DNA from: Conexivisphaerales archaeon
Lineage (GTDB): Archaea; Thermoproteota; Nitrososphaeria; Conexivisphaerales; DTJL01
Length of the DNA stretch: 19,176 bases
Direction of reading: 5' to 3'
Assembly (NCBI GenBank): GCA_049509455.1
Contig: JBEKZX010000029.1
Coordinates: 1-19,176, forward strand
Positions 1 to 18,609 of this stretch are shown here, one piece after another. A program made the position numbers and the translations under genes. The notes beneath the pieces are model-generated. The model had not been told where the DNA came from. It did no database searches and saw only the letters and a list, made by a program, of their open reading frames with translations. The stretch's first letter is position 1; every line of letters starts with the position of its first letter.

Positions 1-492
1 GCCGAGCAGGACTCCCAGCGCGACAGCGCTCACTGCGTATCCGATGGGGTTGACGAATCCCACTATGTGGGGGTGGACTTGGCCGGCGGTAAGCCCTCCG
101 CCGCCCGAAGCGGTCGAAAGGAGCCCAGTGCCTCCTATATAGCCGGCATACATCAACATCCAGGTCGCCGCGGCGACCCCCACGTTCATCAGCACGAAGT
201 GAGCCCAGGCGAGGCCGTTGCTTATTCCGGTGACCGCCTTGTGAAGCCCGTCCTCAATGAGGTGATAGAAGAGCGCGGTGACGGCCACCCCCATCACGCC
301 CACGACGAGGTATGACAGGTAGCCCACCGTTAGCCAAGTTCCGGCGCTCCCCCCGGCGATTAGCATGGTGGGGCTGGGCTTGAGTATTGGAAGGACTATG
401 AGTGCGGTGATGACGAAGGCAGCCAATCCCTGCGCTATGGCAGCATACATGAATCTGGTCGTCCACTTTCCGACTGTTTCGTTCGTAGTCAA
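1..492 (-). CDS. Multi-pass membrane protein, 3'-truncated by window edge
   Basis: Not in the ORF track because it runs off the edge. Hand translation from TTG 492: MTTNETVGKWTTRFMYAAIAQGLAAFVITALIVLPILKPSPTMLIAGGSAGTWLTVGYLSYLVVGVMGVAVTALFYHLIE...AWAHFVLMNVG...MYAGYIGG; 164 codons, no stop, several hydrophobic helices. Resembles from memory a conserved Nitrososphaerota hypothetical membrane protein (unverified). Confidence 0.85.
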   Translation of the reverse strand, partial: MTTNETVGKWTTRFMYAAIAQGLAAFVITALIVLPILKPSPTMLIAGGSAGTWLTVGYLSYLVVGVMGVAVTALFYHLIEDGLHKAVTGISNGLAWAHFVLMNVGVAAATWMLMYAGYIGGTGLLSTASGGGGLTAGQVHPHIVGFVNPIGYAVSAVALGVLLG

Positions 493-548
493 ACGTATGT
501 CATCAATAGGTGGTACTATTGAATGATATATAGCTTTAGTGATTATAA

Positions 549-572
549 ATCATGCCATGATCATGCCATGCA
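549..572. promoter_or_regulatory. 11-bp tandem repeat forming overlapping palindromes next to a TATA-like element; candidate operator
   Basis: ATCATGCCATG x2 (549-559, 560-570); ATCATG-C-CATGAT (549-561) is a perfect inverted repeat; TTATAAA at 543-549. Confidence 0.5.
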
Positions 573-719
573 TACTTCCTTGGGCACGATCCAGTAAGGT
601 AAATCATCGCATTACAGGCAGGCTGCGGCATGGATTGCTTGACTCTCGCCCGCCCAGGGGAGAGGAAGAGCAAAGGCTCTATGCCCTTTCAGCCTGGCGT
701 CGATGGAATCTGCGTCTCG

Positions 720-727
720 GATAAATA
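720..727 (+). promoter_or_regulatory. TATA-like box for sod
   Basis: GATAAATA about 25 nt upstream of ATG 751. Confidence 0.5.
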
Positions 728-750
728 CAACAGGTATGAAGGTCTTTCAA

Positions 751-1356
751 ATGTCAAAGAAGTATAGCCTACCGGATTTGCCGTACAAGTACGACGCCCT
801 CGAGCCATATATCTCCAAGGAGATCATGACTCTGCACCACGACAAGCATCACCTGGCCTATGTAAACGGGGCTAACGCCGCCTTGGACAAGCTAGAGATG
901 GGTAGGAAGAACAACTGGCAAGGGGTCGACCTCAAGGCCACAGAACGGGACCTGAGCTTCAACCTGGCCGGCCACGTCCTCCATTCGATCTTCTGGCCGA
1001 ACATGAAGTCTGGCGGCGGAGGCAAGCCGGGAGGGAAGCTCGCGGACATGATCAACTCGGATTTTGGGTCCTTCGAAGCGTTCAAGGCCCAGCTGTCCTC
1101 CGCCTCAAAGAGCGTCGAAGGCTCTGGTTGGGGCCTCCTGATCTACGACCCCACGAGTGATCAGCTCCTAACGATGCAGTCCGAGAAGCACAATCTCCTC
1201 GCCACTCAGACCTCCGTGCCCCTCCTCGTCTGCGACGTCTGGGAGCACGCATACTACCTGCAATACAAGAACGACCGCAGTGCCTACGTCGATGCCTTCT
1301 GGAACGTAATCAACTGGGAAGATGTGGACAGAAGGCTGACCAAGGCGAAGATATAG
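751..1356 (+). CDS. sod: Fe/Mn superoxide dismutase
   Basis: LPDLPYKYDALEPYIS, HHDKHH, GHVLHSIFW and DVWEHAYY motifs; ATG 751 (MSKKYSLP) preferred to the track's 703 start because it matches the family N-terminus and TATA spacing. Confidence 0.97.
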   Translation: MSKKYSLPDLPYKYDALEPYISKEIMTLHHDKHHLAYVNGANAALDKLEMGRKNNWQGVDLKATERDLSFNLAGHVLHSIFWPNMKSGGGGKPGGKLADMINSDFGSFEAFKAQLSSASKSVEGSGWGLLIYDPTSDQLLTMQSEKHNLLATQTSVPLLVCDVWEHAYYLQYKNDRSAYVDAFWNVINWEDVDRRLTKAKI

Positions 1357-1366
1357 AGGGATTCGA

Positions 1367-1416
1367 CCCGCGATTCGGCGCGGGCCCGTCAGCCCTGCGA
1401 CCTGATGCATTTTTTT
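1367..1416 (+). terminator. Putative sod terminator (hairpin then oligo-T)
   Basis: CCCGCG-ATTCGG-CGCGGG hairpin 1367-1384 and T7 tract 1410-1416. Confidence 0.55.
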
Positions 1417-1718
1417 GCTCTCCTTCACCAACGCTAGCGGCGGCCTTGGATAGCCTGTGCAGATGTGTCAAGAGAATCCCCACAACATGGTTCGAAGGTT
1501 CAAGCTCTGTGTCGTTGTCGGTTCTTCTGCGATGGCATGAGTGGGGCAGCAACTGAAGGCGTCCCAGAGCCTCCTGCTCTACTCAGACCCCAGGAACCTG
1601 ATGGCGCTCTCAAGGGAGTCCATGGGGTGCCTGTCCGCGTCCTGCCAGATAAAACGGTGTTTGGTGCCCAAAGTTGGCCCGTAACGGTTATTTTCACCTC
1701 CGCAAGGGTGATACTGCT

Positions 1719-2480
1719 ATGGAGCTAAGCCAGAAGACCCTCACCGCTCTCCAGGAGCTGGGGCTCACTGACTACGAGGTCAAGGCCTACGTTTCTCTCT
1801 TGCAGTACGGGGCCCAGACCGCTGCGGAAGTCAGCAGGCAGTCGACGGTCCCTTATTCCAAGGTCTATGACGTCCTCGGCAGATTGGAGGCGAAGGGTTG
1901 GGTAGAGAGCGACCTCAGCCGGCCCAGCCACTACTACCCCAAACCTCCCAACGTCGCGCTAGAGGCGTTCAGGATGAAAAGGGAGAGCATGTACGAGAGT
2001 TACGAGAAGATGGTCTCGGAGGAGCTCGTTCCGATCTACGAAAAGCGGGACATCAAGGAGAGGCCGGAAGTGTGGATCGTCAAGGGGGACGTGAACATCT
2101 TCGGCAAGCTCATGGAGGCCATGGGCTCCTGCCGCCAGGAGCTCATGATAGCCCTTCCAGGGGAGCTCAAGGACTTCTCCCGCGGGGCGATCTCGATAGT
2201 GAGCACGCTCCTCGACAGAGGGATATCCGTCTCCGTCCTTCTCTCCGATGAGCAGACGGCCAGGGAGATCAGGTCCTCTCTCCCAAAGGCCGAGATCAGG
2301 GTCAAGGACGGGATGTTCGGCGGGGGCCTCGTCTGTGATGCAAAGGAAGTGGTCCTCCTGCTGGGCCGCAGCGGCGAGGGGATGCCTCAAATAGCCATCT
2401 GGGCGGACCACCCCGGCCTCGCCATGTTCGGGAAGAGCTACTTCGAGTCGCTGTGGAGCACTTCGAAGGTCCTGATATAG
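1719..2480 (+). CDS. TrmB-family transcriptional regulator (wHTH plus effector-binding domain)
   Basis: LQELGLTDYEVKAYVSLL...AAEVSRQSTVPYSKVYDVLGRLEAKGWVE...RPSHYYPKPP, then a C-terminal effector domain; ATG 1719 with TTATTTT at 1688-1694. Confidence 0.93.
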   Translation: MELSQKTLTALQELGLTDYEVKAYVSLLQYGAQTAAEVSRQSTVPYSKVYDVLGRLEAKGWVESDLSRPSHYYPKPPNVALEAFRMKRESMYESYEKMVSEELVPIYEKRDIKERPEVWIVKGDVNIFGKLMEAMGSCRQELMIALPGELKDFSRGAISIVSTLLDRGISVSVLLSDEQTAREIRSSLPKAEIRVKDGMFGGGLVCDAKEVVLLLGRSGEGMPQIAIWADHPGLAMFGKSYFESLWSTSKVLI

Positions 2481-2503
2481 TCCTTCCTGGTCCGTAGTCG
2501 ACC

Positions 2504-2842
2504 TTGAATAAGTCACAGCTAGACGGCCTCACCGAGGAGCTGGCGGCCCTCCTGGAACGGGAGCCACTGGTCCTCATGGCCTGCACCTTCCTTCTCACCA
2601 GGAGCGAGGAGACCACCAAGGAGGAGCTGGCCGTGGGCATGGGGTCGTCGGACGAAGAGGTGAGGGACCTCCTTAGCCGGCTTGACGCAGACGGCCTGAC
2701 CATCAGGGGCGAGGCAGGATTCTATCCGGTGCATCCCAGCCTGGGGATCGGCAACGCGTCCAGGCTGAGCACCGCGGAGGGCCCGGCCGTGAAGGCCAGG
2801 CGCCAGAAGGTGGATTCGCCGATGCCCATCCTGGCGAGCTAA
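2504..2842 (+). CDS. Small winged-helix protein resembling the TrmB N-terminal domain
   Basis: TKEELAVGMGSSDEEVRDLLSRLDADGL...FYPVHP parallels the HTH-wing-YxPxxP pattern of the upstream TrmB; TTG start. Confidence 0.7.
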   Translation: MNKSQLDGLTEELAALLEREPLVLMACTFLLTRSEETTKEELAVGMGSSDEEVRDLLSRLDADGLTIRGEAGFYPVHPSLGIGNASRLSTAEGPAVKARRQKVDSPMPILAS

Positions 2843-2891
2843 CGCGACCACATAGAAGACAGAAGCTTCGCCACGTCGCCCAAGGAAGGGG

Positions 2892-2911
2892 GGATGACGT
2901 CTAGGTCATCC
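2892..2911. promoter_or_regulatory. 7-6-7 inverted repeat upstream of the Cas4-HAD promoter
   Basis: GGATGAC-GTCTAG-GTCATCC, about 10 nt before GATTAAAT (2921-2928). Confidence 0.4.
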
Positions 2912-2953
2912 GTTCCAAACGATTAAATGTGCGGAAGTGCCTTCGTTACGAAG

Positions 2954-4144
2954 TTGACCGACAGCGGAGGGGCCGACGAACGGAAGCTCGTGGACGCTCT
3001 CAAGGAAGGCCTGGTGTCACTTTGGCGGGAGGAGTCCGAGCAGCACGTGCGCCCTGACGGCGCCTACTACCCGAGCTCGATAGGGAGCTGCCTCCGGAAG
3101 CAGTTCTACATGTACACGGTGGAGGCGAAGCCCGACCCAGAGAAGCTCGCCGTGTTCGCCACCGGTAAGGGAATTCATGTCGCCGTCGCCGAGGCCCTTC
3201 GCAAGAGCGGTATCGTTACGGTTGACGCCGAAGAGTACCCCGTCGAGCTGAAGATCAGCGACGAAGTGCGGCTTACGGGGAGGGTGGACGTCCTCCTGGT
3301 CGAGCTGGACGGCACGAAGGTGGTGGTGGAGGTGAAGTCGACCAGCAGGATGCCAGAAAGCCCCCACGAGACCCACATCCTGCAGCTCCAAACCTACCTT
3401 CATTCGATGTCCCTCCCCCGAGGCTTCCTGCTCTACTGGGACAAGAGGACGGGCGAGACGCGGGCCTATCGGGTGGACAGGGACGAAGGATCTCTACAGA
3501 AGATCGGCGAGCGGGCGATCCTCCTGCACGAGCATCTGAAGTCGGGGAGGCCGCCCTTCAAGGAGGCCGTGGTGGAGAACCGATACTGGGAGTGCGATTT
3601 CTGCGAGTACTATGATATCTGCGCCCCCTTCGTTCTCGGCGGGATTGCGAAGGGCTCCACGATCTCCATCTTCGACGTGGATGGCGTCATGGTGGACGAT
3701 CGTGAAAGGATCGAGTCGGCGCTGTCATCGATGGGCCTTCCCCGCGACCTCAACCCTGGAGACCTGAGGGGTCCCGCGAAGGATCGGTTCGTCTCAGTCA
3801 GTTTCGAGCCGAAGCGCCTGGCCATGGACAGGCCCCTTGCTGCGAGCATCCAGATGGCGCTCGCAGACAGGAAGGCGGGGGCATTTGTGGTCCTGGTGTC
3901 GGAGCGACCCTCCTCTCTTCGAGAAAGGACGGAATCGGAACTACGGCGTTTCGACGTTCCCTTCGACGTGCTCTTGATGTTGCCTTCCGACTATGGCAAG
4001 CCGTACTTCTGGAAGACCGACACGCTTAGGCGTCTTCATGACGTTTACACGGTCAAGCGGTTTGTGGACGGCTCCTCTTATGCTCGCTCGGAGGCGGCGA
4101 AGCTGGGGATCGCTGCGGACTCCCCTCCTTCCCCGCCAGCTTAA
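2954..4144 (+). CDS. Solo Cas4-like PD-(D/E)XK Fe-S nuclease fused to a C-terminal PNKP-like HAD phosphatase
   Basis: YYPSSIGSC, GKGIH, GRVD, EVKS, QLQTY, CDFCEYYDIC (C...CX2CX5C); then IFDVDGVMVD, LVSER, FWK, FVDG. TTG 2954 preferred (TATA at 2921-2928); in-frame ATG 2927 is the alternative. Confidence 0.88.
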   Translation: MTDSGGADERKLVDALKEGLVSLWREESEQHVRPDGAYYPSSIGSCLRKQFYMYTVEAKPDPEKLAVFATGKGIHVAVAEALRKSGIVTVDAEEYPVELKISDEVRLTGRVDVLLVELDGTKVVVEVKSTSRMPESPHETHILQLQTYLHSMSLPRGFLLYWDKRTGETRAYRVDRDEGSLQKIGERAILLHEHLKSGRPPFKEAVVENRYWECDFCEYYDICAPFVLGGIAKGSTISIFDVDGVMVDDRERIESALSSMGLPRDLNPGDLRGPAKDRFVSVSFEPKRLAMDRPLAASIQMALADRKAGAFVVLVSERPSSLRERTESELRRFDVPFDVLLMLPSDYGKPYFWKTDTLRRLHDVYTVKRFVDGSSYARSEAAKLGIAADSPPSPPA

Positions 4145-4169
4145 ATAAACGAGGAGGTCATCGTAGGTC

Positions 4170-4907
4170 GTGCCTGAGATTGCCCTGATGGTGGGTAGCG
4201 GGGTCGAGAAGGCGTTCAAGGTGAGCAGGGACATCAGGATCAAGACCCCCTATGGAGTGGTGACGGCGTCGGAGCTGGAGATATTCGACATCCCCGTAAT
4301 CTTCCTCCCTCGCCACGGGCGAGAGCACAGCGTTCCGCCCCACATGATCAACTATCGGGCCAATGTCTTCGCGCTGAAGGAGGCTGGTGTGAAGGTGGTC
4401 GTCTCCACGAACGCCGTGGGAAGCCTCAGGGTCGGCATCAAGCCTGGCGACTGCGTAGTGCCCGACCAGCTCATGGATTTCACGAAGGCGAGGCCCTCCA
4501 CGTTCTTCGACGGATCCAACGGGGAGGTGGTCCACACAGATGTCACTGAGATATACTCGTCCGAAGTCAGAAAGGCCCTTATCCGCTCGTTCTCCGGGAA
4601 GAAGATGCCCCTTCACAGGAAGGGAGTTTACGTCTGCACCGAAGGGCCGCGCTACGAAACTCCGGCGGAAATCGCCATGTACAGGAAGCTGGGGGGAGAC
4701 GTGGTCGGCATGACCGGCTATCCAGAAGCGGTCTTGGCGAAGGAGCTGGGGTTGAAATACGGCACCGTCTGCGTCGTGACGAACTATGGCGCTGGAATGC
4801 AGGACCGGGTCCAGCACTCGGAGGTTGTGCGCCTGATGGACTCTGCCATGGAGGACGTCCGGCACCATATCAAGGCGACCGTCCTCCTGCTCGCCGGTTC
4901 GAAGTAG
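4170..4907 (+). CDS. MTAP/MTIP-family purine nucleoside phosphorylase, likely 6-oxopurine-preferring
   Basis: FLPRHG, INYRAN, NAVGSL, EGPRYET, VVGMT, VTNYGAG; GTG start, GAGGAGG at 4151-4157 and TTAAATA at 4141-4147. Confidence 0.93.
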   Translation: MPEIALMVGSGVEKAFKVSRDIRIKTPYGVVTASELEIFDIPVIFLPRHGREHSVPPHMINYRANVFALKEAGVKVVVSTNAVGSLRVGIKPGDCVVPDQLMDFTKARPSTFFDGSNGEVVHTDVTEIYSSEVRKALIRSFSGKKMPLHRKGVYVCTEGPRYETPAEIAMYRKLGGDVVGMTGYPEAVLAKELGLKYGTVCVVTNYGAGMQDRVQHSEVVRLMDSAMEDVRHHIKATVLLLAGSK

Positions 4908-5050
4908 GCCCTCGGAGGCCACGGGTGAGAGCCTGCTCGGGTCCATTGGTTCTTCCGTCCGATTCTCCCCAATCATCCATAATGTCGCCATGCGGAGGCC
5001 CAGAATCCGTGGCCAAACGACCTTTCGCCGGGGGGTCTTGCCGTAAGTGC

Positions 5051-5119
5051 ATAATATGTGAGTATTTACATAGGCTGCGACAAACATATTATAAATATCT
5101 TAACTGGTTACGTTTATAT
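5051..5119 (+). promoter_or_regulatory. AT-rich hdr-mvh promoter region with two TATA candidates and nested inverted repeats
   Basis: TTATAAAT 5089-5096; TTTATAT 5113-5119 (25 nt before ATG 5144); ATAATATGT (5051-5059)/ACATATTAT (5084-5092) inverted pair; TAAC-TG-GTTA 5101-5110. Confidence 0.6.
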
Positions 5120-5143
5120 TCTGCTTGGCAGATGAGTCAATGA

Positions 5144-5740
5144 ATGCCTGAACTCTCATGGTGGGACTCGAATAAGCTTTCGTTCGTCTACGAACGAATC
5201 TTGAGCCTGCCGGAGGGAAAGCGAATCTTCGAATGCATGCAGTGTGGCACCTGCGGCGGCGCTTGCCCGGTGAGCTTCGCCATGGACCGGACGCCACGGC
5301 AAATCATCAACCTGGTGAGGTCCGGGAGGATGGACGAAGCCTTGCGCAGCGAGACGATTTGGCTCTGCGCATCTTGCTACAACTGCGCCGCCCAGTGTCC
5401 CGCCGGAATCAGGATCACCGACGTGATGTACACCCTGAAGGTCGCCTCCACGGAGCTGGGGATTCACCATAAGAATTCCCTCGGCCCCATCTTCGCCAAG
5501 ACCATGGTGAAGCAGCTGGAGGCTAACGGCCGTATCTCCGAGGTGAGCTTGATCCTCGGTGTGGCTAAACACAAGCTGAGCCTCCTCACGACGCTCAATC
5601 CCTTGATCTACGTGAAGCTCTTCCTCGCCGGGCGAGTGAAGCTGCGCGGCGAGAAGGTCAAGAACATGGAACAGTTGAGGAAGATGAACGCGTGGCTTAT
5701 AGCCAGTGACTTTTCGCTTGAGGAGAAGGACCGCGTTTGA
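5144..5740 (+). CDS. hdrC: Heterodisulfide reductase subunit C
   Basis: CMQCGTCGGACP and CASCYNCAAQCP 2x[4Fe-4S] motifs with PRQII...IWLC spacing; precedes hdrB. Confidence 0.93.
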   Translation: MPELSWWDSNKLSFVYERILSLPEGKRIFECMQCGTCGGACPVSFAMDRTPRQIINLVRSGRMDEALRSETIWLCASCYNCAAQCPAGIRITDVMYTLKVASTELGIHHKNSLGPIFAKTMVKQLEANGRISEVSLILGVAKHKLSLLTTLNPLIYVKLFLAGRVKLRGEKVKNMEQLRKMNAWLIASDFSLEEKDRV

Positions 5741-6609
5741 AGACCCTCCAGTTCTTCCCCGGTTGCTCGCTTCAAGGGTTCAACACGGCCTACTACCGCA
5801 GCGCCATTACCCTCGGGAATATCATCGGGTACAAGCTGGACGAGATCGATGACTGGAACTGCTGCGGAGCCACGGCGTACTTCTCCATCTCCGAAGAAAG
5901 GACCTTCTTGGCCAACGCGAGGAACCTCGCCCTGGCTGAAAAGAAGTCCAAGGAGCTCACCGTCGCCTGCGGCGCCTGCTTCGCCTCCCTCTCCAAGACG
6001 GCCAAGTACTACACGGACTCTCGTAAGCTGGCCTACCTGATGGACAACGCCCTCAAGGAGGCGGGGATGGTTTACGACGGGAAGGTCAAGGTGCGCCACC
6101 TCCTTGAGGTGGTCTTCAACGAGTACCCCAGGGGAGAGCTCGCAGCGAAGGTCGTCAGGCCCCTCAAGGGGATCAAGATGGCGCCCTACTACGGCTGCAT
6201 GATCTTCCGGCCGGTCCCAGCACCCATCCCGCGCGACGCCCTCGAGCAGCTCATCCAGCTCGCAGGGGGAGAAGCCATCGATTTCACGGCCAAGGACAGG
6301 TGCTGCGGCGGGATGCTGGTCAACAACCGGCCCGATGTGGGCCTGGCGCTGGTGAAGGACCTGCTGTCCGAGGCGCAGCAGAAGGGCTCCCAGCTTATGA
6401 TAACCACTTGCCCCCTCTGTCAGGTGAACCTCGAGCTATACCAGGGCGCCGTGAACAGGAAGTACGGCACCGACTTCAAGATCCCCGTGATATATTTCAC
6501 CCAGATGCTGGGCTACGCCATGGGCGCTTCGGCAAAGGAGCTCATGCTGGGGAGCGAGCTGATCAACAGCCTCCCCGTGCTGCAGGGAGCAAGGGTGTCC
6601 AAGAATTGA
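5737..6609 (+). CDS. hdrB: Heterodisulfide reductase subunit B (two CCG domains)
   Basis: FPGCS, DWNCCGA, ACGAC; YYGC, CCGG, TCPLCQVNL; TTGA overlap with the hdrC stop. Confidence 0.95.
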   Translation: MKTLQFFPGCSLQGFNTAYYRSAITLGNIIGYKLDEIDDWNCCGATAYFSISEERTFLANARNLALAEKKSKELTVACGACFASLSKTAKYYTDSRKLAYLMDNALKEAGMVYDGKVKVRHLLEVVFNEYPRGELAAKVVRPLKGIKMAPYYGCMIFRPVPAPIPRDALEQLIQLAGGEAIDFTAKDRCCGGMLVNNRPDVGLALVKDLLSEAQQKGSQLMITTCPLCQVNLELYQGAVNRKYGTDFKIPVIYFTQMLGYAMGASAKELMLGSELINSLPVLQGARVSKN

Positions 6610-8561
6610 AGATTGGGGTCTACATCTGCCACTGCGGCACGAACATAGCTGGCGTCGTCGACGTGGCCAAGGTCGTCGAGTTCGCCGCCACGCTTCCTAA
6701 CGTCGCCGTGGCCCGCGACTACAAGTACATGTGCAGCGAGCCAGGCCAGAACTTGATAGGCGAGGACATCCGCCACCTGGGGCTCGATGGCGTGGTGGTG
6801 GCGGCCTGCTCTCCGACGATGCACGAGCCCACGTTCCAGACCGCCCTCTCCAGGGCTGGGGCGAACCCGTACATGCTCCAGATGGCTAGCATACGCGAGC
6901 ACGTTTCTTGGGTGACGTCCGACCCAGTCGAGGCCACCGAGAAGGCCAAGAAGCTGGTCGAAGCCGCCATCTCCAGGGTGAGCCTCCAGGAGCCGCTGGA
7001 GAAGAGGCGGATACCCGTCAAGCAGTCCGTCCTCGTCGTCGGCGGAGGGATCGCCGGCATAGAGGCCGCCCTAAAGTGTGCCGACGCAGGGAAGAAGGTC
7101 TACCTCGTTGAGAAGGAGCCAAGCATCGGAGGCCACATGGCCATGTTTGACAAGACGTTCCCCACCCTGGACTGCTCCCAGTGCATCCTCACCCCCAAAA
7201 TGGTGGAGGTCGTCCGAAACGAAAACATCGAGCTCTTGGACTACAGCGAGGTCAGGGAGATCTCTGGCCACGTCGGCGATTTCAAGGTCTCCATCGTCAG
7301 GAAGCCCCGCTACGTTGACTCGTCAAAGTGCACTGGATGCGCCGTCTGCTCCACCAAGTGCCCGGGCAAGGCCCCCGATGAGTTCAACCTAGGCATGTCA
7401 AAGAGGAAGGCGATTTACGTTCCCTTCCCCCAGGCCGTCCCCCTCAAGGCGGTCATCGACCGAGAAAGCTGTCTCTACTTCCAGAAGAATATCTGCAAGG
7501 TCTGCGTAAAGTTCTGCAGCGCTGACGCGATAGACTTTGAGCAGAAGCCCGAGGAACTCGAGCTGGGTGTCGGCGCTGTAATATTGGCTACCGGATTCAA
7601 GCCCTTCGACGCCAGGAGGGTGTCGGAGTACGGCTACGGGAAGCTCCCCAACGTCATCACCAGCCTAGAGTTCGAGAGGATGACGTCCGCCTCCGGGCCC
7701 ACCGCGGGGAAGATCGTCCTGAAGGATGGCAGGGAGCCGGAAAGCGTCGCCATCGTCCACTGCGTGGGGAGCAGGAACGTCAACTACAACGTCTACTGCT
7801 CGAAGATCTGCTGCATGCAGAGCCTGAAGCATGCCCACCTCCTCAAGGAGCATCTCCCCGGCGTCGCCGTTTACGACTTCTTTATCGACATGAGGGCGGC
7901 GGGAAAGGGCTATGAAGAGTTCTACAAGCGCGTGATGGGCGAAGGCACAATCATGGTCAGGGGGAGGCCGGCCTACATAACCGACGTCCCATCCAAGCCC
8001 GAGGAGAAGGGCAAGCTTGTCCTGGTGGCCGAGGACACGGTCCTGTCCACCGTGATGCGCTACCCCGTCGACATGGTGGTCCTGAGCGTCGGCCTAGAGG
8101 CCGGCGAAGACGCCAAGGAGCTCGCCCACACGTTCACCTGCTCAAGGACCGCCGACGGCTTCTTCCTCGAGAGGCACCCCAAGCTCGCGCCCGTCTCCAC
8201 GCCCACGGCAGGCGTGTTCATCGCCGGCGCCAGCCAGGGCCCCAAGGACATACCCGAATCCGTCGCCCAAGCCGGCGCGGCAGCCGCCGAAGCCCTGGCC
8301 ATGATGGGGAAGGGCTACTTCGAACTGGAGCCTTACGTCGCGCGCATAGACGAGGACCTTTGCTCCGGCTGCGGCATCTGCCTCGACCTCTGCGCATACA
8401 ACGCACTGGAGCGCATACCCGAAACAGGGCTGACCAGGGTGGTGGAGGCGCTCTGTCAGGGATGCGGAGCCTGCGTCGCTGCCTGCCCGTCCAACGCCCT
8501 GGACCTCGACGGTTTCAAGAACAATCAGATCATGGCCGAGCTGGAGGGGATCCTGGCTTGA
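6606..8561 (+). CDS. hdrA: Heterodisulfide reductase subunit A (FAD/Fe-S)
   Basis: KIGVYICHCG N-terminus, GGGIAG, DKTFPTLDCSQC, CTGCAVC, HCVGSR, CSKICC, CSGCGIC, CQGCGAC; real start TTG 6606 (TTGA overlap), not the track's 6300. Confidence 0.97.
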   Translation: MKIGVYICHCGTNIAGVVDVAKVVEFAATLPNVAVARDYKYMCSEPGQNLIGEDIRHLGLDGVVVAACSPTMHEPTFQTALSRAGANPYMLQMASIREHVSWVTSDPVEATEKAKKLVEAAISRVSLQEPLEKRRIPVKQSVLVVGGGIAGIEAALKCADAGKKVYLVEKEPSIGGHMAMFDKTFPTLDCSQCILTPKMVEVVRNENIELLDYSEVREISGHVGDFKVSIVRKPRYVDSSKCTGCAVCSTKCPGKAPDEFNLGMSKRKAIYVPFPQAVPLKAVIDRESCLYFQKNICKVCVKFCSADAIDFEQKPEELELGVGAVILATGFKPFDARRVSEYGYGKLPNVITSLEFERMTSASGPTAGKIVLKDGREPESVAIVHCVGSRNVNYNVYCSKICCMQSLKHAHLLKEHLPGVAVYDFFIDMRAAGKGYEEFYKRVMGEGTIMVRGRPAYITDVPSKPEEKGKLVLVAEDTVLSTVMRYPVDMVVLSVGLEAGEDAKELAHTFTCSRTADGFFLERHPKLAPVSTPTAGVFIAGASQGPKDIPESVAQAGAAAAEALAMMGKGYFELEPYVARIDEDLCSGCGICLDLCAYNALERIPETGLTRVVEALCQGCGACVAACPSNALDLDGFKNNQIMAELEGILA

Positions 8562-8989
8562 GCGAGCGTCCGAACGTCAGAATTGTGGCCCTCTTGTGTC
8601 GGTGGTGCTCCTACGCCGGGGCTGACTTGGCGGGGGTGAGCAGGATGAAGTATGCGGCCAACGTTCTGCCGATAAAGGTGCCCTGCAGCGCAAGAGTGGA
8701 CCCGCAGTTGGTCCTGAAGGCCTTCTCCGAAGGGGCCGACGGCGTGCTCCTGGCCGGATGCCACCCGGGTGACTGCCACTACCTAAAGGGGAACTACAAG
8801 GCCCTCAGGAGGTTTCAGCTCTTGAAGAAGTTCACCTCCCAGATGGGGATAGAGGACGACAGGCTCAGACTGGAGTGGATTTCTGCCAGCGAAGGAAGCC
8901 GGTACGCAGACGTCGTGAACGATATGACGACGAAGGTGGCCAAGCTGGGCCGACTGAACTGGAGGAGAGAGATAGCCATTGAAGCCTGA
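8558..8989 (+). CDS. mvhD: Hydrogenase [2Fe-2S] subunit MvhD
   Basis: CRWCSYAGAD, VPCSARVDP, GCHPGDCHY, RLRLEWISASEG; TTG 8558 overlapping the hdrA stop. Confidence 0.96.
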   Translation: MSERPNVRIVALLCRWCSYAGADLAGVSRMKYAANVLPIKVPCSARVDPQLVLKAFSEGADGVLLAGCHPGDCHYLKGNYKALRRFQLLKKFTSQMGIEDDRLRLEWISASEGSRYADVVNDMTTKVAKLGRLNWRREIAIEA

Positions 8990-9944
8990 GCGGACAAAGC
9001 CCAAGTTGGCCATAGCGCTGGGCGCCACTTGCTCTGGCTGCGACTACTCCCTGCTGGACCTCGGGGCGGGCCTTCTAGACGTGACCGACCAGGTGGAGAT
9101 CGTCTATTGGCCCACGGGCATCGACTCCAAGCTGGAGGACCTCCAAGCGGTCCCAGACAGGGGTGTCGATCTCATACTTTTCGACGGCGCCGTCGTCAAC
9201 GAGGACAACTTGGAGATGGCTCGACTCTGCAGAAAGAAGGCCAAGATGCTGGCCGCCTTCGGCAGCTGCGGGGCCTACGGCGGCATCCCCGGCCTCATCA
9301 ACAGCGGGAGCCCGAAGAAGATACTCCTCGAGGTGTACCAGGGGCTCCCCACACGCTCCGACAAGGCGGAGGCGCTCAACTTCGAAGGAGAGGATGCGCT
9401 GCCGAAGATGCTGGGGCAGGCTTACTCACTGGACCAGGTGGTGGACGTCGACGTCTACCTCCCCGGCTGCCCGCCTCCTCTGAAGCTAGTGGCCGGCCTG
9501 CTGACGGACGTGCTGGCGGGGAAGGCGATCCCGAAGGGGACCTTCTATGCTTCGAACAGGGCGGTCTGCTACGAATGCAAGCGCGTCAAGGAGAACAAGT
9601 CCATCGACGCCATCCATAGGTACCATGAGATACAGCCCGACCCGACGCGTTGCCTCCTGGAGCAGGGAATCGTCTGCCTGGGACCCGCGACAAGAGGAGG
9701 CTGCGACGCCGTCTGCTGCACCCAGAACCAGCCCTGCAGGGGTTGCATGGGGGCCCTCCCCCATTCCGAAGACAGCGGTGCGGAGATGATGTCGGCCCTG
9801 GCCTCCATAATGGAGCTCAACAACGAGAACAAGGAGGCCGACTATACCGGCATCTTCGACGGCTTGAACGACCCCCTCGGCACCTTCTACACGTTTACGC
9901 TCCCGAAGAGCATCCTGGGAAGGAGGAAGGTGGACCAATCTTGA
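8979..9944 (+). CDS. mvhG: [NiFe]-hydrogenase small subunit MvhG
   Basis: CSGC, FGSCGAYGGIPG, PGCPP, VCYEC, CLLEQGIVCLGPATRGGC, PCRGC. Confidence 0.95.
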   Translation: MKPERTKPKLAIALGATCSGCDYSLLDLGAGLLDVTDQVEIVYWPTGIDSKLEDLQAVPDRGVDLILFDGAVVNEDNLEMARLCRKKAKMLAAFGSCGAYGGIPGLINSGSPKKILLEVYQGLPTRSDKAEALNFEGEDALPKMLGQAYSLDQVVDVDVYLPGCPPPLKLVAGLLTDVLAGKAIPKGTFYASNRAVCYECKRVKENKSIDAIHRYHEIQPDPTRCLLEQGIVCLGPATRGGCDAVCCTQNQPCRGCMGALPHSEDSGAEMMSALASIMELNNENKEADYTGIFDGLNDPLGTFYTFTLPKSILGRRKVDQS

Positions 9945-11398
9945 AGAGGCTGGTGATCAACCCGGCGACGAGGCTGGAGGGTCACGCCAAGATAGCGATC
10001 ATAATGGACGACAAAGGAGAGGTGCAGGACGCCCTGTTCCAGACCGTGGAGTTCAAGGGGTTCGAAAGCTTCTGCATAGGGCGTAACGCCGAGGAGCTGC
10101 CGGTCATCACCAGCAGGATATGCGGCGTCTGCCCGTGGGCGCACCACATGGCCTCCGTAAAGGCGACGGACGCCCTCTTCAGCGCTCCTCCGCCGCCCAC
10201 GGCCCAAAAGGTCAGGGAGCTGGCCTACGACGCCTTCATGGTCCATGACCATACAGCGGTCTTCTATGCGCTGGCGGCCCCGGACCTGCTCCTGGACCCG
10301 GACACGCCCAGGGCGCAGAGGAACATCCTCGAGCTAGTAAAGCGGATCGGCAGGGACACCGGCGCGAAGGTGCTGGCCCTGAGAAAGGCCGCCGCGGACA
10401 TACTCACCATAACTGGAGGGAGGGCCACCCATCCCATCTTCGGCTGCCCCGGAGGAATCACTAGAGGCCTCAGCCAGGAGGACATCTCCGCCATCAGGGA
10501 TCGGAGCCGTCAGCTCGTCGAGCTGGCGGAGTTGACCAATAAGGTCTTCCAAGACAGCGTGGCATCCAAGAAGGAGTTCATCGACCTCTTCAACACCGAC
10601 GCCTTCGTCAACAGGTCGTACTACGCTTCGCTAGTGGGAAAGGACGGCCGGATCAGCTTCCTTGACGGCGACGTCAGGGTGGTCAAGCCCGACGGCTCCA
10701 CCTACGAGGAGTTCAAGCCGGCCTCTTACATGGACCATTTTGAGGAGGCCTCCCTCCCCTGGACCTACATGAAGTTCCCCTACCTGAAGAACGTGGGCTG
10801 GAAGGGGCTCCAGGAGGGGGAGGACAGCGGGCTCTACCGGGTGGGACCTCTTGCGCGCTTCAACGTCGCCAAAGGGTTCACGACGCCTAGGGCCCAAGAG
10901 AAGTTCGAACTGTTCAGGGAGACGCTGGGCAGCCCAGCCCATCAGACGCTGGCCTACCAGTGGGCGAGGGTCATCGAAATACTCTATGCGGCAGAAAGGA
11001 TCACGGAGCTTGTGGACGACCCCGAGCTGGGCGGCAAGGAGATCAGGTCGCAACTGGGCAAGATAGGGGAAGGGGTGGGAGTCGTGGAAGCCCCCAGAGG
11101 GCTCTTGGTACACCACTACAGGGCCGACGAGCGCGGCGTGGTGACCTTCGTCAACCTCATCGTCCCCTCCACGCACAACAACTCGGGGATATGCCTCTCC
11201 GTCAAGAAGGCCGCGAAACACCTCATCAGGGGGACCGAAATCCCCGAGCCTGTCTTCAATCGCGTCGAGATGCTCTACAGGGCCTACGACCCCTGTCTGG
11301 CCTGCGGGACTCATAGCCTTCCGGGGGCGATGCCGTTGAAGTTCGAGCTCTACGACTCTGCGGGTAGGCTCCTTGGTAGCGAGTCCAGGGGCTTGTAA
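9941..11398 (+). CDS. mvhA: [NiFe]-hydrogenase large subunit MvhA (group 3c by context)
   Basis: TRLEGH, L1 RICGVC, EAPRG, L2 RAYDPCLACGTH plus a cleavable C-terminal tail; TTG 9941 overlapping the mvhG stop. Confidence 0.96.
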   Translation: MKRLVINPATRLEGHAKIAIIMDDKGEVQDALFQTVEFKGFESFCIGRNAEELPVITSRICGVCPWAHHMASVKATDALFSAPPPPTAQKVRELAYDAFMVHDHTAVFYALAAPDLLLDPDTPRAQRNILELVKRIGRDTGAKVLALRKAAADILTITGGRATHPIFGCPGGITRGLSQEDISAIRDRSRQLVELAELTNKVFQDSVASKKEFIDLFNTDAFVNRSYYASLVGKDGRISFLDGDVRVVKPDGSTYEEFKPASYMDHFEEASLPWTYMKFPYLKNVGWKGLQEGEDSGLYRVGPLARFNVAKGFTTPRAQEKFELFRETLGSPAHQTLAYQWARVIEILYAAERITELVDDPELGGKEIRSQLGKIGEGVGVVEAPRGLLVHHYRADERGVVTFVNLIVPSTHNNSGICLSVKKAAKHLIRGTEIPEPVFNRVEMLYRAYDPCLACGTHSLPGAMPLKFELYDSAGRLLGSESRGL

Positions 11399-11404
11399 GC
11401 GGCC

Positions 11405-11875
11405 TTGGAACAGAAGCAAGCCATAGCCTGTCTCGGGAACCCAATCCTGGGCGATGACGCATTCGGCCTGCTGGTGGCGAAGGAGCTCGAGGGGACGGCA
11501 GGGGCCAAGGTGATTACGATGGAGGGAGGGGGCCTTGACATGGCCGTTCAGCTCATCCCCTACTCTCGGGTCCTCATCATTGACGCCCTGGAGACTGCCT
11601 CCGGGGAGGTCGGCGAGCTCGTCTCACTGACCATGGAGGAGCTGTCCTCCATGAAAGGGCTGGAAGGCCATGCCCTGAGCCTCGCGCAGGCCGTGGAGGC
11701 CCTTCGGCTTCTCTCGGGGGACAGCCCGAGGACGGTGGACGTGCTGGCTTGCCGGATTAGGCCCGTGACGACCTACGGCGAGACAATTTCGCCTGCGGTC
11801 TGCGCGGCCGTTGCGCCTTGCGCGAAGAGGGCTAGGGGATGGATCTCCTCGGGCCACCTTAGCCGAAACCCTTAG
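11405..11875 (+). CDS. Hydrogenase maturation endopeptidase 1
   Basis: CLGNPILGDDAFG, VLIIDA, GH; directly after mvhA. Confidence 0.9.
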   Translation: MEQKQAIACLGNPILGDDAFGLLVAKELEGTAGAKVITMEGGGLDMAVQLIPYSRVLIIDALETASGEVGELVSLTMEELSSMKGLEGHALSLAQAVEALRLLSGDSPRTVDVLACRIRPVTTYGETISPAVCAAVAPCAKRARGWISSGHLSRNP

Positions 11876-11894
11876 CTATCCCTCCGGCGTGTTC

Positions 11895-11928
11895 CGGGTT
11901 TGGATTGAAGGCGGGTTTGGATTGAAGG
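11895..11928 (+). repeat. Perfect 17-bp tandem duplication over the start of protease 2
   Basis: CGGGTTTGGATTGAAGG at 11895-11911 and 11912-11928. Confidence 0.95.
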
Positions 11929-12443
11929 TCAACGGGAAGGTCCTCATCGTGGGCTGCGGCAACAGGCTGCTGGGCGACGACGGCTTCGGCCCCTCCGCGG
12001 CCGAGAGGTGCCGGCGGTTCAAGCTCGGCGACTCCATTCTCGCAATGGACGTCGGAACCCAACTCAGCCCCCTGATCATGGAGTTGATCTACAGCGAGGA
12101 GAAGCCAAAGGGGCTCATAATCCTGGATGCGTCGGATGGTGGCCGCGCCCCCGGGACGGTCTTCCAGTTGTCCGTCGACGACCTCGAAGGGCGCTCGACG
12201 GATACCTTCAGCCTCCATGACTTCCCTTCGCCGGCCGTGTTTAGAGAGCTCCGCGACGGAAGGGGGGTGGAGGTGCGCATCATCTCATGCCAACCGGCGA
12301 CGGGCCTCGATGGAGTGAAGATGAGCCTCTCCCCAGAAGTGGAGGCCTCGGTCGGAGAGGCTGCCCGCACGGCTGTGATGATGGCTCGCGAGATGCTGGC
12401 GAGGAGCAGGCCCTCTCGCTCTGGCAGCGGACGGCGCTCATAA
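11922..12443 (+). CDS. Hydrogenase maturation endopeptidase 2
   Basis: KVLIVGCGNRLLGDDGFG, IILDA, FSLH; TTG 11922 fits the family N-terminus better than the track's 11811. Confidence 0.9.
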   Translation: MKVNGKVLIVGCGNRLLGDDGFGPSAAERCRRFKLGDSILAMDVGTQLSPLIMELIYSEEKPKGLIILDASDGGRAPGTVFQLSVDDLEGRSTDTFSLHDFPSPAVFRELRDGRGVEVRIISCQPATGLDGVKMSLSPEVEASVGEAARTAVMMAREMLARSRPSRSGSGRRS

Positions 12444-12490
12444 CCCGTCTATTAGGCTGTTTATAAGGCTGGCCGGCGGCTCCTCATCTG

Positions 12491-13045
12491 ATGTGCCCTG
12501 ACGAGGCCACCGAGGCCATAAAGCCTGCCGTTCGCACTAACCGCACATACATCCTCGCCGAAGCGCTCGTGATGATAGCCCTCGCCGCCGCCCTCTACAT
12601 GTTCAAGCTCTTCACCTTCCCAGAGGGCGGCTCGATTACGCTGGGCTCCATGGTCCCCATTTTTGTGTTGTCCCTCAGGAGGGGCCCGAAGGTCGGCATC
12701 GTCGCCGGCGCGTGCCTGGGCATCATCGTGCTCCTCATAGAGCCCTTCGTCTACAACCCGGTCCAGTTCATCCTCGACTACCCACTGCCCTTTGCGCTCC
12801 TCGGTGTCTCCGGGTTCTTCAAAAAGTGGCCCATCGCGGGCGTGGGCGTGGGCATCTCGCTGCGTTTCGTCTGTCACTTCCTGTCCGGTGCCCTCTACTT
12901 CTGCGGATACATGCCCACGTATTACAAGAGCTGCCCCGTCTACTCCGCGGTGTACAACGCCAGCTACCTGATCCCAGAGTTCGCCATCAGCGCCTTGATG
13001 ATATTCATTCTGTCGAGAAGGCATATACTCACCGTCAGCGCATGA
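12491..13045 (+). CDS. thiT: ECF-type thiamine transporter S component (ThiT/YuaJ family)
   Basis: PEGGSITLGSMVPI, RRGPKVG, PVQFILDYPLPF, RFVCHFLSG, YSAVYNASY; TTTATAA at 12460-12466. Confidence 0.88.
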   Translation: MCPDEATEAIKPAVRTNRTYILAEALVMIALAAALYMFKLFTFPEGGSITLGSMVPIFVLSLRRGPKVGIVAGACLGIIVLLIEPFVYNPVQFILDYPLPFALLGVSGFFKKWPIAGVGVGISLRFVCHFLSGALYFCGYMPTYYKSCPVYSAVYNASYLIPEFAISALMIFILSRRHILTVSA

Positions 13046-14142
13046 ATCGGCCTGAGCGGTTCATGACATCGCAAACGGGCGGGCAGAAAGGACCTGCAAA
13101 GTACGGTAAGCCGAACGATTCTTCCTTCGAGGCCGTCTTCAGGCACCTGGGCGCCAGGGCAGAGGGCATCCTCGTTCCGCCTGCCAGGGGCTTCGACAAC
13201 GGGGTGCTCAAACTAGGGCCAGACTCGGTCCTCGTCTTCACAGCCGACCCGATTTCGTTCATCCCTTCTTTGGGGGGCCGCATGTCCGCCTGGCTCAGCC
13301 TCCATCACCTGGCCTCCGACCTCGCCACGAGCGGAGTGAAGCCCCGCTACGCCATGATGGATTACAACCTCCCCGGCGACTTCAGTGACGCGAACCTTCG
13401 CGGCTATCTGTCCGCCTTCAGCGACGAATCCCGCAGCCTCGGCATCTCCATCGTCGGTGGGCACACGGGAAGGTACCCTGGTTGTGGCCTTACGGTGATA
13501 GGTGCGGGGTTCCTGTTCGCTGAGGCGCCCTCCACCGGCTACATCACGCCCTCCATGGCGCATGGAGGCGACAGGGTCTTGATCACCAAGGGGCCGGCAA
13601 TCGAAGCCACGGCGGTCCTCGCCCTCTCCTTCTCTTCGAGGACGAAGGAAGCCCTGGGTCCCGGCGTCCTCGCGAAAGCGAAGAAGAGGTTGCTCGAATG
13701 CTCGACGGTGGAGGATTCCTTGCTCGCCGCTTCGGTCGGCCTTAGGGACGACGGCGTCACCTCTATGCATGATGCCACCGAGGGAGGAGTAGTCACGGCC
13801 CTAGGTGAGATGGCGGCCGCGTCCGGCAAGGAAATAGCCGCCGACCTCAGTCTCCTCCCCGTCCCCGAGGACATAGGTAAGGTTTGCTCCCTTTTCGGAC
13901 TGAACCCCTACGAAACCCTGAGCGAGGGGACGCTAGTCATCACATGTAGACCTGCCAAGGTCGGCCGGCTGATGGGTGCCTTCAGGCGCCGCGGGATAGG
14001 TTGCTTTGAGGTCGGCGAAGTGAAGGAAGGAATGGTGGGCGACCTGAGGAAGGAGAGAGGGGTCCGCTTGGCGCCCAAGAAGTCCCCTGTCGAGCGATAC
14101 TGGGACGTCTACGCCCGCGGCATCGAAGAAGGGTGGAGCTAG
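13042..14142 (+). CDS. AIR synthase/ThiL/HypE-fold (PurM superfamily) protein of unknown function
   Basis: GFDNG, TADPI, SDLATSG, IVGGHTG, MHDATEGG, SEGTL; no C-terminal PRIC of HypE; ATGA overlap with thiT. Confidence 0.85.
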   Translation: MNRPERFMTSQTGGQKGPAKYGKPNDSSFEAVFRHLGARAEGILVPPARGFDNGVLKLGPDSVLVFTADPISFIPSLGGRMSAWLSLHHLASDLATSGVKPRYAMMDYNLPGDFSDANLRGYLSAFSDESRSLGISIVGGHTGRYPGCGLTVIGAGFLFAEAPSTGYITPSMAHGGDRVLITKGPAIEATAVLALSFSSRTKEALGPGVLAKAKKRLLECSTVEDSLLAASVGLRDDGVTSMHDATEGGVVTALGEMAAASGKEIAADLSLLPVPEDIGKVCSLFGLNPYETLSEGTLVITCRPAKVGRLMGAFRRRGIGCFEVGEVKEGMVGDLRKERGVRLAPKKSPVERYWDVYARGIEEGWS

Positions 14143-15746
14143 GAAGGCGGTGCCGGAGCGATGGGCTTCGCCATGTAGGGCCCCTTTCTGGAGTAGCCCA
14201 GCTTCGCGTAGTACTCCCTGGTGCCCACCGCGCTCGTGACGACCATCTCCCGCTTGTCAAATTCCTCCGCTGCCAGCCTCTCCGCTTCGGCCATGAGCTT
14301 CGCGCCAAAGCCGCGGTGCTGCCAGCCGTCGGACCTCCTTTGGCCGACGTCGACGAGCCTCCCGTAGACCCTGAGCTCCCTGATAACGGCTGAGCCAGGG
14401 TCTATGCACAGCGCATGGGCTCCCGGTCCCGGTATCCGCATGCGGGAGAACCCTGCTATGCTGTCGTTTTCGTCAACATAGGAGAGGAAGACTTCCTCTC
14501 CTCCTGACGCTTCATATCTCGAGACTTGGAGCCCGAAGGCATCTTGGGTGCTCGGCGGCAGAGACCTGACGCCGACTTCACGGCACCTGATACAGCTGCA
14601 CTTTTTACCCTGTTCCTCGAGCCTGCGGCGTGCCAGCTCTCTCAGGTTGCTCACCTTCACGCCAGCCTCTATCATATAGGCCGGGATGTCCCTCTGGACC
14701 CGCATGATTCTGATCCACGGGGGCGTCATCTCCTTAGCCTTCGCCACCAGCTCCACCGTCTGGTCCAGCGTATAGGGGACGTACTTTCCTTGTTCGTAGA
14801 GGCGGTGGAGGGGAGCGGACCCTATCACGAGGGTTGGATAGATCTTCAGCATATCTGGCTTGAACCGCTCGTCTTCGAAGAGCATCCTAAATGACTTCAG
14901 GTCCTTCTCGACGGAGGAGCCCGGCAGGCCGGGCATCATGTGAGCGACGACCTTCAGTCCCGCGTCCTTCGCCTCCATGAACGCCCTCGCCGTCTCCTCG
15001 ACGCCGTGGCCCCTGTTCACGAAGGCGAGGACTCCATCGTCCAAACTCTGGACACCGATTTCAACTCTGGTGGCGCCATACCTAAGGAGGAGCTTCAGCT
15101 CCCTCCCGCCAAGGCAGTCCGGCCTGGTCTCCAAGGTGAGCCCGACGCAACGCCTCCCAGCCGTCTCGTTGACCCGGATGGCCTCCTCCAGGGACGGCGA
15201 GCGCTCTCCGTTAAGCCCTTCGTAGAGGCCCTTCACGAATCCCTCCTGATACGACGGGTCGAAGCTTAGGAAGGTCCCGCCCATTATGATGAGCTCCGCC
15301 TTCCCCGTGCTGTGTCCTATCTCCTCCAGCTGCCGAAGCCGGTTGCGGACTTCGCGGAAGGAATCGTAGTCGTTCTGGGCCCCCCGGAGGGCTGCCGGCT
15401 CCTTTCCCGTATAGGACTTCGGGGATCCGAACGCCACCCCCCCCGGGCAGTAGATGCACCTAGCCTGGGGAGGGCAGGGGGCAGGCCTCGACATCGCCGC
15501 GATGACCGCGACACCCGATATGTTTCTGGCCACCTTGATGGTCAGAAGCGTCCGAAGGTCCTCCTCACCGGGTGCGAGGTATTTCAAGAGCTCCGAGTTC
15601 CGCGGAATGGAGGGGCTTCCGCTCTCCGAGGCCGCCCTCTGCTTGATGACCTGGACGTCCCGATGAGAGGGGCTCTGCATCTTCCTGAGCTCCTCCACGG
15701 CCGTCCGGGCGGCCAGTTCCAATCTATCCTGGGGAAGCTCCTGCAA
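14139..15746 (-). CDS. elp3: tRNA U34 acetyltransferase Elp3 (radical SAM plus GNAT)
   Basis: RNISGV, CPPQARCIYCPGG, KSYTGKEPA, ETRPD, RVQRDIP, QHRGFG, GTREYYAKLGY; TTG start; 4-nt convergent overlap with the AIRS gene. Confidence 0.96.
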   Translation of the reverse strand: MQELPQDRLELAARTAVEELRKMQSPSHRDVQVIKQRAASESGSPSIPRNSELLKYLAPGEEDLRTLLTIKVARNISGVAVIAAMSRPAPCPPQARCIYCPGGVAFGSPKSYTGKEPAALRGAQNDYDSFREVRNRLRQLEEIGHSTGKAELIIMGGTFLSFDPSYQEGFVKGLYEGLNGERSPSLEEAIRVNETAGRRCVGLTLETRPDCLGGRELKLLLRYGATRVEIGVQSLDDGVLAFVNRGHGVEETARAFMEAKDAGLKVVAHMMPGLPGSSVEKDLKSFRMLFEDERFKPDMLKIYPTLVIGSAPLHRLYEQGKYVPYTLDQTVELVAKAKEMTPPWIRIMRVQRDIPAYMIEAGVKVSNLRELARRRLEEQGKKCSCIRCREVGVRSLPPSTQDAFGLQVSRYEASGGEEVFLSYVDENDSIAGFSRMRIPGPGAHALCIDPGSAVIRELRVYGRLVDVGQRRSDGWQHRGFGAKLMAEAERLAAEEFDKREMVVTSAVGTREYYAKLGYSRKGPYMAKPIAPAPPS

Positions 15747-15839
15747 GGTACTGGCCTCTCAAACGGCCGGCATTATTTGAACCTCGCTAGGGCAAGTTGA
15801 AGAAGGTATATCTCGCCCGGTCTCGAAACACTCCGCGCA

Positions 15840-18605: not shown

Positions 18606-18609
18606 GGCG

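Follow-up and report, generated by a model that had tools for sequence, protein, structure and literature searches.

Fusion of a Cas4-family nuclease with a catalytically altered PNKP-type HAD domain in Conexivisphaerales archaea

A single gene for a nuclease and a HAD domain

We analysed a 19,176-nucleotide stretch of DNA (hereafter the window) from a Conexivisphaerales archaeon (GenBank assembly GCA_049509455.1, contig JBEKZX010000029.1, positions 1 to 19,176). On its + strand, positions 2954-4144 form a single uninterrupted gene in which a Cas4-family nuclease is joined in frame to a HAD domain of the type found in polynucleotide kinase-phosphatases (PNKP). Counted from a TTG codon at 2954, the product has 396 amino acids; the longest open reading frame (ORF) runs from an ATG at 2927 to the TAA at 4142-4144 and gives 405 amino acids (P0001), and all residue numbers below follow this longer frame. 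The gene carries the following features.

2917-2928, + strand: AAACGATTAAAT, a putative archaeal promoter (transcription factor B recognition element, BRE, with TATA box) about 30 nucleotides upstream of the TTG
3017-3634, + strand: Cas4-family PD-(D/E)XK nuclease domain with a four-Cys Fe-S module (PF12705, PF01930, PDB 4ic1)
3089-3091: C55 of the nuclease
3278-3289: GRVD, with D121
3329-3340: EVKS, with E135 and K137
3383-3397: QLQTY (Q153-Y157)
3593-3622: CX2CX5C (C223/C226/C232)
3635-3652, + strand: linker from the last cluster Cys/Pro to the first HAD strand; in the AlphaFold2 (AF2) model, residues 233-244 are without regular elements and a strand spans 245-250
3653-4120, + strand: HAD-fold, PNKP-type phosphatase-like domain (AF2 pLDDT about 87-96; Foldseek; family profile against the PDB)
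3668-3685: HAD motif I, IFDVDG; D250-V-D252-G-V at 3674-3688
3827-3829: D301
3899-3907: HAD motif II, S325 and R327 (LVSER)
4013-4015: HAD motif III, K363
4061-4072: HAD motif IV, FVDG; D381-G382 at 4067-4072

The fusion had been proposed in a sequence-only reading of the same DNA, and it holds: the frame is open across both domains, every motif named in that reading lies where it was placed, and the two domains are contiguous in more than 30 independent assemblies, which argues against faulty assembly as its source. Full-length orthologues show 41-78% identity.

The translation start, which the same reading had set at 2954, is probably the TTG at that position, as (i) this TTG is kept across five orthologous loci in an alignment of the upstream regions, (ii) AAACGATTAAAT lies about 30 nucleotides upstream of it, (iii) the ATG at 2927, which falls inside the promoter-like element, is missing from L007 and out of frame in L001, two of these loci, and (iv) the ESM Atlas record for the fusion protein begins at residue 10. 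The 12-nucleotide element is identical at five orthologous loci, though the proteins encoded there are just 58-100% identical, and the window contains a single copy of it, where chance would predict 0.03. Its spacing from the TTG would imply a leaderless or short-leader mRNA.

The Cas4-family nuclease

Residues 55-234 match PDDEXK_1 (PF12705; 5e-10), and the protein scores 24.9-27.0 bits on Cas_Cas4 (PF01930), above the cut-off of 22.7, and 58.1-60.2 bits on the NCBIfam Cas4 equivalog TIGR00372, below the cut-off of 65. The sole clear sequence match of the nuclease half in the PDB is the Cas4 protein SSO0001 (4ic1; E 1.5e-7), which is also the top Foldseek match of the AF2 model (E 2.6e-7, probability 1.0); the cluster region has low pLDDT in that model. 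A protein-atlas search gave just generic Cas4-like clusters with scores under 0.8, which we regard as leads. The catalytic residues (D121, E135, K137 and QxxxY) and the four Cys are invariant in 16 orthologues, in all further loci and in forms that consist of the Cas4 part alone. The four Cys, one N-terminal and three in the C-terminal CX2CX5C, are the predicted ligands of an Fe-S cluster.

We failed to find any cas gene within the window, or any match to Cas1 in the whole genome (95.5% complete), while the same search did find Cas1 in seven control genomes. The gene is thus not encoded with cas1 and cas2 beside a CRISPR array, as a CRISPR-associated Cas4 would be, in agreement with the CRISPR-independence assumed in the sequence-only reading. 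Scans with family models gave no match to a P-loop or AAA_33 kinase domain in P0001.

The HAD domain and its active site

The PNKP-type assignment of the C-terminal half comes from its homologues and from a family profile, the single-sequence Pfam score being sub-threshold: the window domain alone scores 13.5 bits on HAD_PNKP (PF25109), below the cut-off of 27.6. An exhaustive search with residues 236-405 gave 67 representative homologues. Among the 43 that were scanned, 32 match HAD_PNKP and 30 match the class-IIIB acid-phosphatase model, and two distant homologues carry AAA_33. When the family profile was compared with the PDB, it retrieved the phosphatase domains of Pnkp1 (1.1e-16) and T4 Pnkp (2e-6). 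The HAD domain of the AF2 model (pLDDT about 90) matched AphA, the T4 Pnkp phosphatase (5uj0) and many other HADs in Foldseek with probability 1.0. The fold suggested by the sequence-only reading is therefore borne out by both Foldseek and the profile matches to Pnkp1 and T4 Pnkp.

Six of the seven key residues of T4 Pnkp are present in the window protein: D250, D252, S325, R327, K363 and D381 align with T4 Pnkp D165, D167, S211, R213, K258 and D277, which accounts for motif I, for the S/T and the PNKP-type Arg of motif II, and for the Lys of motif III. Motif IV is without its acidic pair (D277-D278 in T4 Pnkp), as G382 occupies the position of Asp278, a direct Mg2+ ligand in T4 Pnkp (PMC3592404). 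The caveat attached to DG in place of DD at the outset was well placed.

These residues allow a bifunctional enzyme to be considered, with both domains active in the window species. Acting on damaged ends, the HAD domain would take off 3'-phosphates or open 2',3'-cyclic phosphates and the Cas4 part would resect, so that clean 3'-OH ends are delivered for repair synthesis or recombination. This is possible in our view, though doubtful. The six T4 Pnkp-equivalent residues and the fact that the closest solved relatives are polynucleotide 3'-phosphatases speak in its favour, and Gly382 in place of the Mg2+-ligand Asp speaks against it. Moreover, PD-(D/E)XK nucleases leave 3'-OH ends, and such products create no need for a 3'-phosphatase.

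Distribution and inheritance

The nuclease was found in 32 of 36 Conexivisphaerales genomes, including all 15 of high quality, and in all 11 genera. Its forms are distributed as follows (g, genus; f, family).

Own genus of the window genome (g1) and families f2 and f3: full fusion
Genera g2-g4 of the own family: HAD part without the motif I region
Family f4, 15 of 17 genomes: Cas4-only, 220-250 amino acids

The Cas4-only orthologues terminate at the linker position, just past the last Cys. Together with the loss of the motif I region in g2-g4, the Cas4-only state of f4 indicates that the HAD domain is accessory. Fused forms occur outside Conexivisphaerales too (P0030/P0084/L050 and P0050/L051/L052/L054). 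Named relatives stem from metagenome-assembled genomes of Conexivisphaerales/Nitrososphaerota.

Groups in the nuclease tree correspond to the taxonomic families, and the motif-I-less and HAD-less forms fall together in it. In the HAD tree a single branch (SH-aLRT 84) parts the fused from the stand-alone forms, from which the HAD domain appears to have been joined to the nuclease once. Tree and distribution fit one old fusion, which would have been followed by decay and loss. The distribution of the nuclease also fits what has been described for archaeal solo-Cas4 genes, namely vertical inheritance at about the level of the order (PMC5704561).

Within the genus, the ratio of nonsynonymous to synonymous substitution rates (dN/dS) was 0.06-0.10 for the nuclease, and the HAD domain gave 0.10-0.27. 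These values are rough, as dS is almost saturated between the genomes compared. Housekeeping genes flank the nuclease in every lineage examined. The near-universal presence of the gene in the order, a tree congruent with taxonomy, low dN/dS, housekeeping neighbours and the absence of a Cas1 match make it look like a vertically inherited housekeeping solo-Cas4.

The same observations bear on the idea of an antiviral defence or counter-defence nuclease. Cas4-like proteins can act in defence, for example in UvrD-Cas4 contexts (PMC5704561), and the Cas4-family and DruK models of PADLOC match the nuclease domain; these matches, however, merely restate the Cas4 fold. A gene that is universal and vertical in its order, evolves at low dN/dS and keeps its chromosomal position amid housekeeping genes is not what this idea predicts, nor are defence genes found nearby or Cas1 matched in the 95.5% complete genome. 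We consider a defence function extremely unlikely.

Erosion of the phosphatase site

The residues at the positions of T4 Pnkp D165, D167, S211, R213, K258, D277 and D278 were tabulated for 33 fused and 15 stand-alone homologues. The nucleophile Asp is present in all 15 stand-alone homologues, and Asp at the D278 position in 14. Both are found in four of the 33 fused forms (P0008, P0009, P0010 and P0018), and the nucleophile has been replaced by G, S or E, or deleted, in 25 of the 33. It is Gly in all other members of the window genus (GGC versus GAC in the window gene), Ser in f2 and Glu in f3 and the P0050 group, and it is deleted in g2-g4. The full catalytic set is found in no member of the window genus, where the D278 position varies among I, N, D, G, V and T. 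D252, D301, R327 and K363 are retained in every form that still has the motif I region.

As the nucleophile has been lost in most lineages and a whole family is without the HAD domain, catalysis is evidently dispensable for the conserved function. The purifying dN/dS and the kept D252, D301, R327 and K363, set against the lost nucleophile or Mg2+ ligand, indicate that the HAD domain is under selection, but not for phospho-aspartyl catalysis. For the bifunctional enzyme, the absence of the nucleophile from all other genus members and the drift at the second position of motif IV count as signs of relaxed catalytic constraint; the four fused relatives with a complete catalytic set count in its favour.

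Erosion could also mean that the HAD domain has no function left and is in the course of being lost, as might be read from the loss of motif I in g2-g4 and of the whole domain in f4, two groups that cluster in the nuclease tree. Such a remnant would not be expected to show a dN/dS of 0.10-0.27 within the genus, to keep D252, D301, R327, D347, W362 and K363 across lineages that are only 35-60% identical, or to give a confident fold model, and we hold this explanation to be unlikely.

From the nuclease tree, the Asp nucleophile of the window protein could be taken as a Gly-to-Asp reversion. We reject this, since the HAD tree does not resolve the genus, and retention of the ancestral Asp is at least as parsimonious.

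Some relatives of the HAD domain stand apart from this series. One f3 genome has, besides a fused form with a Glu nucleophile, a separate canonical copy (DLDG, SGRP, HDD) at L037:2463-3359 (G010:C33), in a 298-amino-acid ORF with an unexplained C-terminal extension. P0068 and P0086 (JGI metagenome, 408-413 amino acids) belong to the same HAD clade and carry a canonical DLDG; they were considered as further Cas4-HAD fusions and rejected, as their N-terminal region of about 225 amino acids, labelled CdvB/ESCRT-III-like by one source, is unrelated. P0074, a metagenomic protein of 1289 amino acids, holds a distant member of the clade amid aldo/keto reductase, NUDIX and YbjQ domains.

Stand-alone homologues beside a uracil-DNA glycosylase gene

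A stand-alone copy of the HAD domain with a canonical site is present in 13 of the 14 genomes of f5, a sister family in the same class (the class-level genome sample included one unpublished genome, G131, on which none of our claims depends). In all 13, which represent seven genera, it lies directly downstream of, and on the same strand as, a gene for a type-4 uracil-DNA glycosylase (UDG) that scores 290 bits on the equivalog NF040953 against a cut-off of 250. The pairs lie at the following positions.

L033:2486-3762: UDG gene and stand-alone HAD gene
L034:1779-3058: the same pair
L035:2441-3643: the same pair
L036:2425-4115: the same pair
9 further genomes: the same pair

The UDG-HAD operon points to a DNA-repair ancestry of the HAD domain, and the f5 protein itself probably acts in base-excision repair as a DNA 3'-end phosphatase. 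This linkage also adds to the case for the bifunctional enzyme. Near two stand-alone genes of other lineages we noticed, as anecdotal observations, an AP_endonuc_2 gene (1.6 kb from P0019) and a DCD/dUTPase gene (near P0025).

Genomic neighbourhood

The neighbourhood of the fusion holds genes for superoxide dismutase (SOD), a TrmB-type regulator, a 112-amino-acid ORF, a methylthio-nucleoside phosphorylase and hdrCBA-mvhDGA, together with two HycI genes, ThiT, a PurM-fold gene, Elp3, an MBL-fold gene and a HAD hydrolase. Those discussed here, and a tRNA gene, have the following positions.

1674-2480, + strand: TrmB-family transcription regulator (PF01978, 4e-23)
2504-2842, + strand: 112-amino-acid ORF between the TrmB gene and the fusion, no family match
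4170-4907, + strand: methylthio-nucleoside phosphorylase, MTAP/MTIP family (PF01048, 2e-47; NF006599, 236.5 bits against a cut-off of 223)
11405-12443, + strand: two successive HycI-type hydrogenase maturation protease genes after mvhA
18649-18721, - strand: tRNA-Cys (GCA) (ARAGORN)

The TrmB homologue, found upstream of the fusion in g1, L001 and five f3 loci, is the most widely kept neighbour. The 112-amino-acid ORF is 52-56% identical within the genus and 44% identical in L001; it was rejected as a conserved partner, L003 having a different, membrane-like ORF in its place. The phosphorylase gene has a GTG start 25 nucleotides past the fusion stop, preceded by a Shine-Dalgarno-like GAGGAGGT at 4151-4158, and the two genes are probably co-transcribed. 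They adjoin in the genus, L001 and L015, and not in most f3 loci or in L003, so that the phosphorylase is not a conserved partner either.

This arrangement invites the thought of nucleic-acid scavenging under the control of the TrmB-like regulator: an exonuclease would yield mononucleotides, the HAD domain would act as a nucleotidase, and the downstream phosphorylase would split the resulting nucleosides. The PNP/MTAP-family gene so close downstream, with its Shine-Dalgarno-like sequence, and the class B nucleotidase AphA among the best Foldseek matches of the HAD domain agree with it. By its scores, however, the downstream enzyme is a methylthio-nucleoside phosphorylase, an enzyme of methionine/polyamine salvage; the two genes stay adjacent in species whose HAD domain is without its nucleophile, and they are not adjacent in most f3 loci or in L003; sequence profiles group the HAD domain with polynucleotide phosphatases; and the stand-alone relatives adjoin UDG, not genes of nucleotide metabolism. 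A scavenging role is thus very improbable.

Further downstream, hdrCBA-mvhDGA occupies window positions 5144-11398 between the phosphorylase gene and HycI. At L001:7214-8720, in a relative 58% identical and otherwise syntenic, this cluster is absent and the phosphorylase gene is followed directly by HycI, which suggests that the whole cluster was inserted or lost.

Proposed function

We give a probability of about one half to the reading that the protein is a housekeeping solo-Cas4 of repair or recombination, whose HAD domain is now a weak or non-catalytic accessory that binds phosphate or DNA ends or has a structural role. The nuclease would be a metal-dependent PD-(D/E)XK DNA nuclease whose structure is secured by a four-Cys Fe-S cluster. 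Judged from characterised Cas4 proteins, its action would be to bind ends or nicks in DNA and degrade one strand so that single-stranded DNA is exposed, most likely in chromosomal DNA repair or recombination and independently of CRISPR. The HAD domain would descend from a stand-alone PNKP-type phosphatase that was fused once, before Conexivisphaerales diversified. After the fusion, catalysis would have become dispensable, with the phosphate-contacting D252, S/T325, R327, K363 and D301 kept and the nucleophile or the Mg2+ ligand repeatedly lost. In the window genome the nucleophile is present and the Mg2+-ligand Asp is replaced by Gly, and phosphatase activity of the HAD domain is most likely weak or absent.

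Several points weigh against this proposal. The window protein retains DxDGV, the Ser, the Arg, the Lys and one motif IV Asp, with which residual or even full phosphatase activity may be compatible. The phosphate- or end-binding role of a degenerate HAD domain is one that we purely infer, and the AF2 arrangement of the two domains is of low confidence (pTM 0.47). The signal of selection on the HAD domain carries the roughness of dN/dS near saturation of dS. As to the repair ancestry, the UDG linkage is limited to one family of related, non-independent genomes; a UDG gene was seen neither beside the stand-alone P0019, P0021 and P0025 of other lineages nor linked within Conexivisphaerales itself.

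It is attractive to speculate that the HAD domain senses or processes phosphorylated DNA ends and steers the Cas4 part to damaged breaks bearing a 3'-phosphate, being catalytic in some species (those of the P0008-P0010 type, and perhaps that of the window) and a pseudo-phosphatase 'reader' in others. Although we judge this rather unlikely, the protein would then be an undescribed archaeal end-cleaning enzyme, evolved from a UDG-coupled 3'-phosphatase of base-excision repair.

The sequence-only reading had gone further in proposing one polypeptide that both cuts nucleic acid and heals 3'-phosphate ends. As stated, this working nuclease and 3'-phosphatase finds no support, given Gly at the Mg2+-ligand position, the loss of the nucleophile in most lineages and one family without the HAD domain. 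Among the roles that it listed, DNA repair gains some support from the UDG-HAD operon of f5; defence, anti-defence and nucleotide scavenging gain little.

Relation to known proteins

The fusion is real and apparently undescribed: like the sequence-only reading, which named none, we found no description of a Cas4-HAD fusion in the literature searched. A phylogenomic study of Cas4 covers fusions to Cas1 and UvrD only, and the word phosphatase is absent from it (PMC5704561). The protein is a variant built of known parts and not a new kind of system. With archaeal Cas4 and solo-Cas4 proteins (SSO0001, 4ic1; Pcal_0546; Solo-Cas4 of Methanosarcina mazei) it shares the PD-(D/E)XK motifs, the one-plus-three Cys and the fold, and with archaeal solo-Cas4 genes the location outside CRISPR loci and order-level vertical inheritance. 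It differs from archaeal Cas4 in a C-terminal HAD fold of about 165 amino acids, unreported for Cas4, and in scoring below the NCBIfam Cas4 equivalog cut-off.

The phosphatase domain of Pnkp (Capnocytophaga Pnkp1, 4xrp; T4 Pnkp, 1ltq and 5uj0; PF25109) gives the best profile matches in the PDB and has in common with the fused domain a DxDxT-type HAD fold and six equivalent residues. Unlike Pnkp, the fusion protein is without a kinase domain, has a nuclease as partner and carries Gly for Asp278; its HAD domain also has an extra helical insert of about 30 amino acids between motifs I and II, and its Pfam score is sub-threshold. The f5 stand-alone HADs fall in one clade with the fused domain (E 1e-27 to 1e-34 in comparison with the fusion profile) and have the same insert as well as the LDxP, GRP and K motifs. 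They differ in being separate proteins of 170-220 amino acids whose catalytic set (DxD, T, K, DD) is complete, and in being linked to UDG, not to a nuclease. Dead HAD-like binders of phospho-ligands, such as the LNS2 domain of Nir2 (PDB 9jtz), which is among the fold matches, keep the HAD fold as a binding module; there is no specific relationship, and they serve as an analogy for a possible non-catalytic role only.

Implications

New here are the order-wide decay series, its residue-by-residue comparison with T4 Pnkp, the probable stand-alone ancestor linked to UDG, and the putative promoter with the probable translation start. The orthologues form a natural experiment in the passage from an enzyme domain to a non-catalytic module, with steps that run from a complete site through loss of the nucleophile or of a metal ligand and loss of motif I to the disappearance of the whole domain. 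For archaeal base-excision repair, the UDG-HAD operon brings forward a candidate 3'-phosphatase. As to what solo-Cas4, encoded by most archaea, does in the cell, its fusion in this lineage to a domain derived from an end phosphatase offers a testable pointer to DNA-end repair rather than immunity.

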